Source: Ascoidea asiatica JCM 7603
Taxonomy: Eukaryota; Fungi; Ascomycota
Assembly: GCA_001600695.1 (NCBI GenBank)
Contig: BCKQ01000005.1
Location: 122,159-133,917, forward strand
Length of the DNA stretch: 11,759 bases
Reading direction: 5' to 3'
In this document: positions 525 through 11,261 of the stretch, in pieces
Layout of the letters: each line of letters starts with the position of its first letter
Numbering within the stretch: the stretch's first letter is position 1
Program-made: the position numbers and the translations under genes
Notes under the pieces: generated by a model
Databases searched by the model: none
The model's input: the letters and a program-made list of their open reading frames with translations, nothing else
Told to the model about the DNA's origin: nothing

Positions 525-1261
525 TTAAAACGACATTTCTTCATCTTCACTATTTGAATCGTAACTTTCTACTGACGACAAGTCATTATCCTTATTATTA
601 AGATCAACACATTCTATATGATTATTTCCACTATTATTTGAATTATCATTATTTTTCTCACTTTTATCGCTATCACTATCATTATTACTATTACTACTAC
701 TACTACTATTGAAAATATCATTCTCAGAAGCAAATTTTTCAACATATTCCTTAATTTTTTCATTATATAATTCTTTATTATTTAGATATAAATGGCTTGC
801 ATCACCATTCAATGGATCATCTGCATTCGGATATCTTAGTAACTGTGGTAAAAAAATTTCAAAAATATTAAACATATCAAACATTGGTGACCACTTCTGA
901 TTAATAACATCTAGACATACTGATCCACTTGTTTCATCAATATTTGGATGAAATATTATATTTGTAAATCCAATAGATGGCGATTTATAAGGATAATCAT
1001 CTGGTAATTCAACATGCACTTTCCAGATTCCATTTTCATATGATGTGCCTTTTGGTCCATAAAATTTCACAAAAAATTCTTGTAAATTATCATTTATTAA
1101 TTCGACTTCATAATCACTCATTATAAGATTACTAACGTCTGTTTGAATACGACGTTTTGAGGAGCTTATTATATAAAAACACTAATTTGTCAGTAAATAT
1201 TTCATTCATTTTAAAAGTAAATCCCCTATCAAAAGGATAAAAAAAAAGTAACATACCTCAT
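525..1261 (-). CDS. UBC8: E2 ubiquitin-conjugating enzyme Ubc8 (UBE2H family, GID complex E2). Two exons: 1261-1257 (ATGAG) and 1164-525; 214 aa with an acidic Ser/Asn-rich tail.
   Basis: UBC core with FHPNID...GSVCLDVIN active-site Cys and [10 protein letters not shown]. Splicing restores the conserved N-terminus [12 protein letters not shown] in frame with the 198-aa ORF. S. cerevisiae UBC8 also has an intron just after the start codon. Confidence 0.93.
1165..1256 (-). other. Spliceosomal intron of UBC8, 92 nt
   Basis: 5' splice site GTATGT at 1256-1251; branch-like TACTGAC at 1195-1189; 3' splice site AAG at 1167-1165. Removal gives ATG AG|C TCC TCA AAA CGT CGT. Confidence 0.88.
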
Positions 1262-5232: not shown

Positions 5233-5505
5233 TTTGTGAATATATAATATTCCATGTATATATTGTAAGTAGTGAAAATATTTTTTTTTGGGTAACTAAA
5301 ACGATTCATTTTTGTAAGCTATGGATATTACAATGAGGCCTACTTCAGTTTCAAAGCAAAACAAAAAGTATACTGGGAAAATTTCTCCTAATCTAACCAA
5401 GATAATGAAGACTGATTGATAGTTAACAGTTCAATAAAAAACAACCTCATCACTTAAAAAAATTAGTTTTGACCAATTGAATAGTAACAGGGTTAATATA
5501 TATTA

Positions 5506-6482
5506 TTAACACCTTACATCTACCCCCTTTCTTTTTTCATCTTCTCTTAATTCAAACATAATCTGAACGCCGACATATAAACAGAAAGTAGAAATAAGTG
5601 AAAATTTTATACCATCAGAGGAAGAAATCATATCATTTAATAACTTTTTAGTTCCTTCAGTCCCTAAGCAAAAACCCATTATATTTGCAATCATCATAAG
5701 CCAAATGTTAATAACAGCACCAATGCCACAAACATGTCTATAATACCATTTATTTATGATTAATGGCTTTAAATACATATTAGATAATATTTCTGGAATT
5801 AAAAACAAAACAATTAACCATCCCCACATTAATAGTTTCAATTGAATATCATGCCAAATAGCAACAAAAGAGAAAACTGCCAAAGAAGTTAAAATTCTGG
5901 AATTTGATCCACCTAACGGAATATATATATATTTAGTTACCCATTTATTATAAGAACGGTGCCATCCTCTCCAAAAGGCTAAAGCTGAATAATTATTACT
6001 TACGCATCGGATCATATTTTCAGGGGTATCAATTCCATCAAATAAAGCCCAGAGTCTAAAAAATCTCCAAGGTATCAATAACTTCAACCAAATTATTACT
6101 AGATTAAAAAAGCCAATCATTGAGATTTCAAAAGGAGTATCATTTGACCATGCTTTTCTTTTTGAAATTGCAACGACATAAATATAATGTAAAATAAATT
6201 CCATTGTTAAAAGACAGTATAAAAATCTTAAAAGGTATTTAATTAAAAAACTTAAATTTAGTGTTGGTAATCTATGATAAGATTGAAAAATGAAATCATT
6301 AAACGTTATAATTGGACCTGCAATAAATAAAGGAGTATAAAATACATAAGAAATATAATTAAATAAATTATAATCACTTAAATTTAACGGAGCATTCATT
6401 CTTAATTTATCATTAGTTAAAAGTTCTGGATTCTCTAAATCTATATTAGATTTACTTAACTTTCTTATTTTACTAGAACTAA

Positions 6483-6514
<32 letters not shown>

Positions 6515-7329
6515 GTTGTTGGCTCTAATTGAAGTTCATAATATCGGTTATAAAAATCTAAGTTAAAACTTAACATCCTTAGTAAAGTAAAGTTAAAGAA
6601 TACATCCCATCTTTCAATAATACCTTTGAAAGAATCTAAAAAACTTAAACTTGAAGATATTGAAGAAAATTTAATTAACCTATATTTATCATTAATAAAT
6701 AAAGTGGAAATTCCATACACCCAAATAGACAAAATTCCAATTTTTTTATAATTCAAATTTTTTAAATTTAAAAAGCTAGGTAAAGTTTTTTTGTTTTTAT
6801 TCAAATAAATAAAAAATCTTCCAATGAAGAAGTTAATAAATAAATGTAATAAAATTTTAATTGAATTGAATCCATGAGCAGAAAATAAGAAAAACAATCC
6901 AAAAAAAAAATCAAAATTATTCCTAACATTTGAAACTAATTTAGCAAAAACAATTCTTAAAGTCAAATGTAATAAGGATAATAAACTTAATAATAAAATA
7001 TTATCTCTAAAAAATCTATATTGAGAGTCAGAATTATCAAATTTTCTATCAAATAGCCAACCATCAGATAGTAAATTTTCATAATTTATATAATTTTCAT
7101 TATCGGAAGAAGATAGATTTATTGCAGTTTTATACATGTAAGGAACAGCTATAGAAAATACAATTATATAAAACCTAAATTCTAAAGTTGACCAATTTGA
7201 AACATTTGAATTTTTTATTATTCTATCTTTTTTTTGGGCAGAAATTGTTGAGGGAGATAGCCTTGAGTCTAAAACTGGTAAAGTAAAAAAATCCAGATAA
7301 TGTTTGATTATTTTAATCATGGGTTGCAT
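5506..7329 (-). CDS. GUP1: Membrane-bound O-acyltransferase Gup1 (GPI lipid remodelling; HHAT-like MBOAT), 607 aa
   Basis: DNSDSQYRFFRDN, RWDVFFNFTLLRMLSFNLD, GPIITFNDF, PENMIRC..NNYS..AFWRGWHRSYNKW, FVAIWHD (catalytic His), many hydrophobic segments, C-terminal GVDVRC. Confidence 0.94.
6484..6513. repeat. (ATT)10 microsatellite encoding Asn10 in a Gup1 loop
   Basis: Ten perfect ATT units; translates to TTNNNNNNNNNNV on the minus strand. Confidence 0.95.
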
Positions 7330-7474
7330 TGAATATTATTATAAATCTGTGGAATTAAATATCTGTTTGCATTTGGTCTAAATAGCTTCTCAGTTTTCTA
7401 TAAAAATTGAAATTGAATTTCTGATTTTTATTCAAGACAATTACATAAATGTAATAAATTGAAAGTACCACTCT

Positions 7475-7482
7475 CCGGGTAA
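7475..7482 (+). promoter_or_regulatory. Reb1-type binding site in the GUP1 upstream region
   Basis: Exact CCGGGTAA about 146 bp upstream of the GUP1 ATG, inside a GC-rich patch in otherwise AT-rich DNA. Motif match only. Confidence 0.5.
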
Positions 7483-7594
7483 TCTGGATAGCCACCTGAG
7501 GGCGGTGGTAATTTTTCAAATAATAATGCAAGTGAAAAATACCTTGAAATACTGTGCTTTCAACATTTGTTCGCAAATGTTCATCGGTCAGGAT

Positions 7595-7940
7595 TAGTGT
7601 TTAAAAGTTATGTTAGGTCCTAACCTAACTTTTAAAGTCTTGAAATACCTAACCTAACTACCTAACTTTTAAGTCACGTGATTATATAATAAATTGATTT
7701 TAAAGCTCAGTTTGAATGTTTTTTTATTTTTGGACTTTTCCTCAAGTATAGATAAGAGGCTACGTGATTTCTAAAAGAAAAATACACATGAAAATTCCCA
7801 TAAGTAAAATTTTTATTTTTAAAATTTATAAAATCACGTGACTACACGTGATATTTGTTTTTTAACTTTTCCTAACTTTTTAAAAATTGGGCTCTAAATC
7901 CTAACTTTTTCAGGTTAGGTTAGGAAAATTTAAAACACTA
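7595..7940. mobile_element. Non-autonomous hAT-superfamily DNA transposon (MITE), 346 bp
   Basis: Left end TAGTGTTTAAAAGTT vs reverse complement of right end TAGTGTTTTAAATTT (13/15). Directly flanked by an 8-bp near-direct repeat, GTCAGGAT (7587-7594) / CTCAGGAT (7941-7948). Clusters of CCTAAC/GTTAGG motifs near both ends; no ORF. Confidence 0.82.
7673..7850. promoter_or_regulatory. Cluster of CACGTG E-boxes (Cbf1/Tye7/Pho4-type) inside the MITE
   Basis: GTCACGTGAT at 7673-7682, its exact reverse complement ATCACGTGAC at 7833-7842, CACGTG at 7845-7850; near-matches TACGTG 7761-7766 and CACATG 7785-7790. Confidence 0.55.
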
Positions 7941-8346
7941 CTCAGGATTCCAGCCATAACCAGTAATGCCTAATAGTGGCTGATTCCAAATCCCTCCATG
8001 GGGTTTCAAAACCGAACAGTTCTTGGAACGGGATGAGAATTTTAGAAAACTATTTTATTTATACATCTAAATTCTTAGTACTCTAATAATTTGATAATAA
8101 AAAAGTTTTTATTTACTTTACAATATTCAAATGTTAAATAATGAATTTTTATATAGTAAAGAACGAAAAAACAAGTTATTTTTTCTTTTTTCAATTTTGT
8201 TTTATTGGAAATAATTTTCATCAACGAGAATAAATTTATAAAATTCATTGGAATTCATTTTTTAGTATGATAAAAATTTCAAAGTATATTATTAGCAGGC
8301 TTATTAAAGAGAAAAAATTAGAAAAGAAAAAAAATCACATAGGAAA

Positions 8347-10320
8347 TCAATCCATTTGATCATATAATTTTTGAAGATCATAATTCTCTCTCCAATACTT
8401 CCCTCTTTTTTTTAAAATTATCATTGGAATTGCACAAACGGTAACCAATCCTGCGACAATAGTATATAGCGGACCAGCTCCAATAGCTTTAATTAATGGT
8501 TCTGATATAAAAGACCCAATAGTAGCCATGCTTTGACGTAATAAATTGTTTAATGCAATTCCGGTAGCACCCCTTCCTGGAAGTGAATCCACAATATATG
8601 TAATCGTGAAAGAAACGGTAAGCATATTTGCAATTCCAAATAAAAACGTCCCCACAAGTGGAGCTACCCAAACTGTTTTTTTTTCAAAACACCAACCAGT
8701 AATCAAAAGTGCAACGGGATATAATATAACTGCAAGAAGTAAATTATATGACAACCTAGCTTCTGGGGCTAAAAAGCCATATTTCTTTTGATAATCTTTT
8801 AATAATTTATCAACCCATTTACCTCCAACATATGATGCAATTATATAACCGGCCGAATTTGGAATATACATCAAACCAACAATAATTGAAGAAAAAGAAT
8901 ATGGCTCTTTAGAGTAAATATTTGAAAGAGCCATATTATTTATATAAGTAGGTAAAAAAGAAAAAGAAGAATATAATATGGCTAAAAGTACCGGAGGATA
9001 TTTGAAAAATACAACTGCCTTTAATGGGGAATAAAAAAAGTATAAAGCTGAGTTAAATTTATTGATTTTATTATGTGATTTATTTTCAGAAACATGAGAC
9101 TCAACAATTGTTTTATATTTTCTTAAATCTGAATTTCTTATAGATATTTCACTATTGAAGTTGGAGGATGTTCTAGTTATTGCTTGACCTGCAAATAAAT
9201 CAATGGGAATATCATCTTCATCGTTGATATTTCTGCTAGTATGTGTCAAAACATTGGTTAAAACTCTTTCAATCTCTCTTGGGTTCAAATTTTGATCAAT
9301 ATCATTATCATGATCAATTTTATCACTAATACTATCATGACTAGTTGTACCAACACCAGTATCAATATTAGAAACTATATCAAAATCAGAATTCATAGTA
9401 TTAGTTCTATCGATATTGATGACGATGTTGTTGTTGTTGTTCTCAATAATATTATTAGCTGATTTTTTTGTCTTTTGAGCTTCTTCATCGAATGTTAAAT
9501 CTTTTTCAATATTAATTCTTCTAGATTTCAAAATTTCTGCAATTGCTGATTTACTTTCTTGTCTTCTAAGTGTTTCCGGTAAAAAAAAAATGATCATTAT
9601 ATTAATACAAAAAGCAAAAATAACCAAGAACCATTGAGTACCTCTGAATCCCCATCTTAAAGATATAGCCCCACCAATTATTGGAGATAAAAAGGGTGCA
9701 ACTAAAGTCCCAAGATAAAAAAAACCCATTGCAGTTCCTCTTTCGGTTGGAGCAAATAAATCTGCTATTGAACCAGCACCAACACTTTGAACAGAACTAG
9801 AAGAAGCTCCACATAAAATTCTGAATCCCATTAGCATACCTATTGAGGTTGAAAGTGCACAACCTATTGAAAAAAACATAAAAAGAGTAAAAGATATAAT
9901 ATATATTGATCTTCTACCGAATTTTTCACTAAAAGAAGACCACCAAAGAGGAAAGATTCCTAAGGACAAAAGGTAAATACCAACAGATATATTAACTAAA
10001 GAAGTCGAAGTATGAAGAGTTTTATCAATATTATCTATAGATGGTAATAAAATTGAAGTTCCCATTGGACCAATTATAGAAGCAGAAGCTACTATCGAAA
10101 GAATTAAATTTTTCATGCTTTTTGAATAATTTCTAGGATCTTTGTATTCTGGGACAAGTAATAAAGTTTTAGCGAAAAATCCCCTTCTATCTTTTCTTAA
10201 AATTATTGTATCATCAAAAGTATTAGTATTTTGAACATTCTTAGAAATTGGACTTGAAATTTTCTTATTATCAACAGGGGATATAGGGTTTGAATCGTTG
10301 TTAGTTGTATGAGTAGGCAT
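8347..10320 (-). CDS. QDR3: MFS drug:H+ antiporter, DHA1 family, Qdr3-like; 657 aa from ATG 10320
   Basis: GPMGTSI, VNISVGIYLLSLGIFPLWWSSFSEKFGRR, SVQSVGAGSIADLF..ERG, LPETLRRQ, PEARL; two TM bundles with a long central loop, matching Qdr3 as I recall it. The ORF track start at 10329 is TTG; the first ATG is at 10320. Confidence 0.88.
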   Translation of the reverse strand: MPTHTTNNDSNPISPVDNKKISSPISKNVQNTNTFDDTIILRKDRRGFFAKTLLLVPEYKDPRNYSKSMKNLILSIVASASIIGPMGTSILLPSIDNIDKTLHTSTSLVNISVGIYLLSLGIFPLWWSSFSEKFGRRSIYIISFTLFMFFSIGCALSTSIGMLMGFRILCGASSSSVQSVGAGSIADLFAPTERGTAMGFFYLGTLVAPFLSPIIGGAISLRWGFRGTQWFLVIFAFCINIMIIFFLPETLRRQESKSAIAEILKSRRINIEKDLTFDEEAQKTKKSANNIIENNNNNIVINIDRTNTMNSDFDIVSNIDTGVGTTSHDSISDKIDHDNDIDQNLNPREIERVLTNVLTHTSRNINDEDDIPIDLFAGQAITRTSSNFNSEISIRNSDLRKYKTIVESHVSENKSHNKINKFNSALYFFYSPLKAVVFFKYPPVLLAILYSSFSFLPTYINNMALSNIYSKEPYSFSSIIVGLMYIPNSAGYIIASYVGGKWVDKLLKDYQKKYGFLAPEARLSYNLLLAVILYPVALLITGWCFEKKTVWVAPLVGTFLFGIANMLTVSFTITYIVDSLPGRGATGIALNNLLRQSMATIGSFISEPLIKAIGAGPLYTIVAGLVTVCAIPMIILKKRGKYWRENYDLQKLYDQMD

Positions 10321-11261
10321 TAAATTCAAAGCAAAAATTAATTAACAATAACTTAATTTTAAAATTATTGGCAAATCCATTATATGAATTTAAATAAATT
10401 AATAAAAAAAAGAAGCAAGTTAACTCTTTATAAGGAAATTAATAAAATATTCAAGAAAGTAAATATGATAATTAATATTATTACATTTGCTAAATAATTT
10501 CACCTCAATCGAATTATTCCAGTATAGCCAATAGAAGCAAAAAAAAAAATTGAGATTTCAAACAGAAAAATAAAAGATTTAACTTAGATATTAGATTTGA
10601 TATTCAAATGACGATTTATGATAGTAAAATAAAAACAAATTGTTTTTGGAAGATAAATTTATTATTAAATTGAGAAACAAAACTTTACTTTTCATAAGAG
10701 TGACAAAATATTTCAAAAAAGAAAAAATCCGACAAAACCTCGGAATTTATTTCAAAATAGATGAAAAGAGAAAAAAAACGAATTTAAGAAACAAAACATG
10801 TGATAATTTTACAGCAAACAAACCAAGTATGGCTTTTCGGGTTAATAATCATGGACAAATCGAGGGTAAGTTGGTCGAGAAGCAGCAGAACTTTCAGAGT
10901 GAAGCTGAGTCAAAGACACCGCCGGGCGAACAGCTTTTCGTTAGGATTGGAATATTTATCAGAAAAGGCCTCACCGGAATTAGATAAAATATAATAGGAA
11001 ATTAGCGGCAACTCACCATTTTGGTAACTTAACCGATAATTCCCTTCTTTTTCCCAAAAAATTAACCGCCAGCTACTGGTAAATACCAATACACGATATA
11101 TTGAGTATTTTGAAAAACAAGGTTCTATGTTGATTATAAAAAACGTGATTTATTCTGACAGGTATAGGTTTTTAATCATTGGGAATATCTTTAAAATCCG
11201 AGAAAGATAGAAATTTTATTTTGTTGTTCCCAGAACAACTCAACTACAATGATTACCCTGA

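Follow-up and report, generated by a model that had tools for sequence, protein, structure and literature searches.

The window (the whole stretch of 11,759 nucleotides that was analysed) contains four genes, which encode a ubiquitin-conjugating enzyme, an isoleucyl-tRNA-synthetase-type protein, an MBOAT protein and an MFS transporter. Among 7991 scored candidates, the best match of the MBOAT protein comes from Ascoidea rubescens (67% identity), with the next named yeasts reaching at most 56%, and many of its matches carry the name GUP1. Judged by these identities, the host is most likely an Ascoideales-type yeast, Ascoideales comprising Ascoidea and Saccharomycopsis in the accessible part of PMC13148404.

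Two features of the surroundings deserve mention in their own right. The first is a 250-bp inverted repeat (110-359/11510-11759), the arms of which are 99% complementary and separated by 11,150 nt, such that it flanks all four genes and its right arm reaches the end of the window. It is unrelated to the element described below, and could represent a second repeat family with two copies in opposite orientation, a segment capable of inversion, or a feature of the assembly. The second concerns the ubiquitin-conjugating gene, which we take to resemble S. cerevisiae UBC8. Judged by eye over the region of approximately 1165-1261 (minus strand), this gene probably starts at ATG 1261 and contains an intron, with putative signals in the form of GTATGT at 1256 and a branch-like TACTGAC at 1195-1189; if right, this start would explain why the Pfam match of the gene opens at profile position 16.

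Anatomy and setting of the 346-bp element

Between the MBOAT and MFS genes lies a MITE-type element of 346 bp and a GC content of 0.26 (Table 1), situated 266 bp upstream of the GUP1-like ATG (7329, minus strand) and 407 bp beyond the MFS stop codon. It is non-coding, its longest stop-free frame amounting to 44 aa. The left TIR and the reverse-complemented right TIR agree at 13 of 15 positions, the first eight exactly, and both begin with TAGTG; the two TSD copies directly abut the TIRs. Thus far a preliminary description of this DNA, which had reported an ORF-less unit of this length with imperfect 15-bp TIRs, an adjacent 8-bp TSD, and an insertion upstream of GUP1, agrees with our findings at each point. 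This location most likely reflects a tolerated intergenic insertion.

Table 1 Coordinates of the element, its component parts and the two flanking genes within the window
Feature	Position	Strand	Basis or remark
GUP1-like MBOAT acyltransferase, 607 aa	5506..7329	-	PF03062; 67% to Ascoidea rubescens
Left TSD copy, GTCAGGAT	7587..7594	+	7/8 identical to 7941-7948
TIR element (MITE-type), one copy of a dispersed family	7595..7940	.	Structure, depth, other junctions
Left TIR, TAGTGTTTAAAAGTT	7595..7609	+	Other contigs part from the window at 7595/7596
Left subterminal block: palindrome and four co-oriented CCTAAC	7612..7666	.	Motif positions
Inner palindromic box with CACGTG (7675), left arm of the 18-bp pair	7672..7689	.	
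AT-rich core	7690..7825	.	One other copy is ~69 bp shorter
Right arm of the 18-bp pair and CACGTG boxes 7835, 7845	7826..7852	.	
Right subterminal block, asymmetric to left: two CCTAAC, two GTTAGG inward	7871..7924	.	
Right TIR, read inward TAGTGTTTTAAATTT	7926..7940	-	Long pieces stop at 7940
Right TSD copy, CTCAGGAT	7941..7948	+	Abuts the right TIR
MFS transporter, 657 aa	8347..10320	-	PF07690

The interior of the element is dominated by short motifs. CCTAAC occurs at 7619, 7624, 7648, 7653, 7661, 7871 and 7900, and its complement GTTAGG at 7612, 7914 and 7919, giving ten occurrences (the preliminary description had counted about ten), each no more than 72 bp from an end, with only four others in the remainder of the window. 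Dinucleotide-shuffled versions of the element (n = 2000) contain 0.19 such motifs on average and never more than three. The motifs are split six to four between the left and right ends, and their orientation patterns differ: reading inwards, the left TIR is followed by a GTTAGG-T-CCTAAC palindrome and then by four co-oriented CCTAAC motifs, and the right TIR by two CCTAAC and then two GTTAGG. The preliminary description had missed two further features, namely three CACGTG E-boxes (7675, 7835 and 7845; maximum of one in the shuffled sequences) and an 18-bp inverted pair (7672-7689/7826-7843) with 136 nt between its arms, within which the first two boxes are located. These boxes most likely belong to the ends as a further subterminal motif.

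Shuffling produced TIR and TSD geometry of this quality 6 times in 1000 trials on the intergenic region and not once in 100 on the whole window, and an equal-scoring, low-complexity match is also present within the GUP1 ORF (6751-7211). By itself the geometry is only moderately unlikely, and it is weaker evidence than copy number. As a single strand the element folds stably (z -4.3), a consequence of its inverted motifs, and we do not take this stability as a sign of RNA function. Searching the whole window against Rfam at E up to 1 yielded only chance-level matches to MIR7696 (E 0.48; 24.9 bits, where the gathering score is 83) and FTX_1 (E 0.99), a tRNA scan found none, and the neighbourhood of the reconstructed empty site, with fold z of -1.6/-1.9 at best, gave no hint of an interrupted RNA gene.

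The DNA beside the element is richer in GC (0.40 at 7460-7594 and 0.46 at 7941-8040) than the remainder of this intergenic region (0.21 and 0.17), and contains a hairpin at approximately 7466-7509. These flanks are of single-copy depth, have no match in Rfam, and show fold z-scores between -1.1 and -2.8. This GC-richer DNA may be a promoter-type island of GUP1 into which the element inserted.

Copy number, shared junctions and heterogeneity of the family

Three public sequencing runs of one organism (X1, X2 and X3) contain 94-98% of the sequence words of window positions 5500-10400. X1 and X3 derive from one sample, and X1 and X2 may be source DNA, so the runs are not independent. Contigs were aligned to window positions 7000-8600 at 80% likeness, resulting in 35 (X1), 33 (X2) and 34 (X3) aligned records; none aligned from X4, a run of another organism, which is no proof of absence there. 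Summed contig depth is flat over the flanks (46 in X1, 45-49 in X2 and 35-38 in X3) and lies between 206 and 557 within the element in X1, with the jump confined to the bins covering 7594-7971. The ratio of inside to flank depth ranges over 4.5-12.1 (X1), 5.7-13.6 (X2) and 4.8-16.1 (X3) and peaks at both ends, summed contig depth not being equal to copy number. A single-copy sequence, which the preliminary description had named as the outcome that would speak against its reading, is not what these depths of 4.5-16 times the flanks describe.

The junctions tell the same story. In X1, 15 of the 35 records fit the window in part only, with loose ends at 7595, 7596 and 7939 (at least two contigs each), 7940 (at least three) and 7941 (at least one), and at least two further loose ends fall at 7935 in X2. 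Other copies sharing the predicted ends, as the preliminary description had anticipated, are accordingly present, with at least four left and at least six right junctions within 1 bp of those ends in X1, some of which could be allelic if the organism is diploid. Three long pieces from X1, other than the window's own copy, stop exactly at 7940, and copies stopping there lie within long contigs (9,792 bp; 12,863 bp). A weak hint of an 8-bp TSD at a second copy comes from X3, where one right flank matches the merged left-flank consensus at 7595 at six of eight positions in register (flanks being merged from two to three contigs per row). A joint skipping the element was found in none of the three runs, which represent at most two samples, have identical loose-end letters and are possibly source DNA.

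Because depth jumps inside the element and other junctions fall at the same two ends, the element is one copy of a dispersed, multicopy, non-coding and TIR-bounded family with sharp common ends. It is shorter than 600 bp and has several copies at different sites, and we hold its reading as a MITE with high confidence. The notion that we are dealing with a chance arrangement in AT-rich DNA could draw on the equal-scoring TIR and TSD match in the GUP1 ORF, yet the observed clustering of motifs was reached in none of 2000 shuffles. An assembly artefact is likewise opposed by the junctions of the GUP1-upstream copy, both of which lie inside contigs of single-copy depth, without differences, in all three runs, and by the many other junctions at the same ends. 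We consider the probability of either to be negligible.

The family is heterogeneous and includes internal deletions, unlike a young and homogeneous MITE burst. By identity, the X1 records fall into classes of 14 at 99% or above, 8 at 95-99%, 6 at 90-95% and 7 below 90%, such that 13 of 35 are less than 95% alike; many copies fall in the range of 80-95%. In one copy, 35 letters resembling 7725-7760 replace the 104 bp at 7725-7828, leaving it approximately 69 bp shorter, and further contigs have one end or both in common with the element and differ in their interior, with joints at 7623-7871 and 7629-7719. Such internally differing contigs fit deletion derivatives. At 7863 and 7670, loose stretches at least 255 letters long are unlike the element interior, although the one at 7670 (one contig, X3) still opens with a CACGTG box. 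Contigs that combine these ends with another interior may belong to sister subfamilies, or to a longer and possibly autonomous parent. Junctions at 7596, 7939 and 7935 indicate altered terminal bases in several copies. As the copies diverge, their terminal bases vary, and the copy studied here has a 7/8 TSD and a 13/15 TIR, the family is probably mostly aged.

The same variation bears on the possibility that the sequence is a functional chromosomal module, centromere-like or bound by Cbf1, in which an AT-rich core of approximately 136 bp would lie between inverted RTCACGTG boxes, with about one such module per chromosome. Three CACGTG boxes where shuffling yields at most one, an 18-bp inverted pair spaced by 136 nt, and some five to seven depth-equivalents across the core would all suit such a module. 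However, the sequence has TIRs, a TSD and base-precise common ends, and the CDEI box is not conserved: CACGTG is altered at 7678 in one contig, at 7846-7847 in one, and at 7836, 7837 and 7839 in one contig each, where depth corresponds to approximately five to six equivalents. One copy, moreover, does without some 69 bp of the core, and published Ascoideales centromeres, in the accessible parts of PMC13148404 and bioRxiv 2025.04.25.647736, are of the regional or Ty5-cluster type. We regard a chromosomal module as very unlikely.

That the element is a solo LTR, or what remains of some other retroelement, is in our judgement most unlikely. Solo LTRs of yeasts are typically dispersed and diverged sequences of approximately 350 bp, and Cbf1 sites are present in 24% of yeast Ty5 LTRs according to the accessible part of bioRxiv 2025.04.25.647736. 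The ends of the present element, though, read TAG...CTA, not the TG...CA of LTRs, its flanking repeat is 8 bp rather than 4-5 bp long, and the motif arrays at both ends, together with the two-fold layout, are not LTR-like.

Superfamily assignment and a proposed mechanism

The accessible text of PMC4316626 defines hAT elements by TIRs of 5-27 bp and an 8-bp TSD. The present copy combines a 15-bp TIR and an 8-bp TSD with a YAG start and asymmetric subterminal repeats. Termini of hAT elements follow the consensus YARNG, and 8-bp TSDs are also generated by P, Merlin and some Mutator elements. We consider it likely that the family belongs to the hAT superfamily and consists of miniature transposons, an assignment made by anatomy, as no transposase was found to accompany these ends. 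Of the earlier reading as a hAT MITE, the multicopy, non-coding TIR element with sharp ends is upheld, and the hAT part is the best fit by anatomy. The preliminary description had further invoked the nTnnnnAn target preference of Hermes/hobo. This TSD does fit that pattern, but two fixed bases are matched by chance in approximately 13% of cases (0.37 x 0.37) at this composition, and the pattern is absent from two right flanks of other copies, each represented by one contig, leaving the proposed preference unsupported.

The alternative to be weighed here is a non-autonomous TIR element of Mutator/MULE, P or Merlin type, with a TSD of 8-9 bp and mobilised by the transposase of the respective family. 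In favour of this alternative, no transposase was found, MULEs are present in yeasts (Mutyl, alpha3), and the TSD was seen at one copy only, where it matches at 7/8 positions. Against this, a 15-bp TIR starting with TAG and accompanied by hexamer arrays suits hAT, whereas MULEs usually have long TIRs and 9-bp TSDs, and the ends of Merlin elements start with GG and those of P elements with CA. Furthermore, in the accessible part of PMC5751038, hAT is ubiquitous and P and Merlin transposases amount to single cases in Dikarya or fungi. An origin in one of these other superfamilies seems unlikely to us, and we retain hAT as the working assignment.

Viral contigs were scanned with five degenerate motifs for a hAT transposase that could serve as a seed; the scans gave 0, 1, 0, 0 and 3 loci, none of them a hAT ORF. 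End-pattern matches in metagenomic (3 loci) and viral (9 loci) sequences are attributable to chance: L001-L003 and L007 represent one 27/28-bp right-end match (L001:4001-4028) that falls on the opening codons of a 53-aa ORF in a phage-like contig of aquatic origin, and the remaining eight loci show no further likeness to the element. A phage BLAST produced no match.

By analogy with hAT biology, mobilisation might proceed as follows. A longer parent would likely have given rise to the miniature family through internal deletion, and a transposase supplied in trans from another genomic locus would cut and paste the element. Its catalytic dimer would grip the TAGTG tips, and its BED zinc fingers, as in Hermes, would bind the CCTAAC array, cooperatively so at the palindromic pair beside the left TIR; a staggered insertion over 8 bp, followed by repair, would then create the TSD. 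Perhaps, and we see the chances as even, the family represents a hAT lineage that is new for budding yeasts, has no relation to Rover or Roamer and was separately acquired in Ascoideales. A bolder version, in which miniature copies of such a separate lineage carry inverted CACGTG boxes of the Cbf1/CDEI type, with their AT-rich core, into promoters such as the GUP1 promoter, some of them being co-opted as regulatory or centromere-seeding DNA, strikes us as a long shot.

Comparison with known systems

Class II elements have been described as very rare in yeasts. The preliminary description somewhat overstated this rarity: MITEs have been published for Lachancea (mRover1) and Diutina (Dici1). In the literature that we found, these are the only yeast MITEs, and yeast hATs are confined to Saccharomycetaceae. 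We found no literature on Ascoidea DNA transposons or on these ends, Repbase, Dfam and most subscription journals being outside the scope of our search; neither is mentioned in the accessible parts of PMC5499181, PMC6692504 and bioRxiv 2025.06.16.659975, and the word 'Ascoidea' is absent from the accessible supplement of PMC5751038, where genomes may carry other labels. The family is apparently undescribed, although its absence from print is not established. It would extend hAT-type MITEs to Ascoideales, with ends that differ from those of Rover and Roamer. It also favours the idea that such elements seem rare in part because searches have relied on transposases and few genomes have been surveyed. 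It reveals no new mechanism. Its two ends offer a concrete probe for the parent transposase, and the family would gain in importance if that parent proved to be still active or to have been acquired horizontally, or if GUP1 expression were altered by the CACGTG boxes.

The closest counterpart is mRover1 of Lachancea, termed the first MITE in yeasts in the accessible text of PMC4316626, where its elements average 356 bp and possess 8-bp TSDs and 16 subterminal hexamers in both orientations. Our family resembles mRover1 and the Rover elements of Lachancea and Kluyveromyces, as portrayed in that text, in its budding-yeast host, length of approximately 350 bp, lack of an ORF, short YAG TIRs, 8-bp TSD, hexamer repeats in both orientations, handful of copies and internal-deletion variants. 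Rover and Roamer TIRs start with CAG, TAG or CAT, that of Rover3 with CAGTG (PMC4316626, accessible part, Table S4), yet beyond the first letters the Rover TIRs are unrelated to ours (Rover1 CAGCACTGGGG..., Rover3 CAGTGCTGTCC...; same source). The hexamer also differs, being CCTAAC here and GATTCG in mRover1, and the copies of our family are more diverged than the 93-100% given for mRover1 (both PMC4316626, accessible part). The hosts belong to different orders (Ascoideales here, Saccharomycetales there), and the present family has no known parent. Roamer, from Naumovozyma and Kluyveromyces, shares the TIR start TAG and the 8-bp TSD, in contrast to which its TIRs are 28 bp long (TAGACATGGG...) and its elements are autonomous and approximately 3 kb in size (PMC4316626, accessible part). 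A word search of the accessible sequence supplement of PMC4316626 for TAGTGTTT yielded no occurrence. Judged by the compared sequences, the element is not a member of Rover or Roamer, and the comparison with these elements that the preliminary description had suggested finds no match for the TIR or hexamer of the family.

A different parallel is offered by the MITEs derived from Dici1 in Diutina catenulata, which are likewise non-autonomous TIR elements of a budding yeast outside Saccharomycetaceae. Unlike our family, they are ITm (Tc1/mariner) elements with a TA duplication, a length of 1053 bp and a known active parent (PMC13469147, accessible part).

In the layout of its ends, the element resembles Hermes and Tol2. 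As far as the accessible part of PMC10368747 describes it, the left end of Hermes has a quasi-palindromic pair of repeats just past the TIR, bound cooperatively by two BED domains, and its subsequent repeats are co-oriented, with a differing right end; Tol2 is similar. Imperfect short TIRs, a palindromic pair followed by co-oriented repeats, an asymmetric right end and an 8-bp TSD are common to these elements and ours. Their BED site, however, is AAGT (PMC10368747, accessible part), whereas the motif enriched here is CCTAAC, a putative site only, which often runs on into ACTT, the complement of AAGT.
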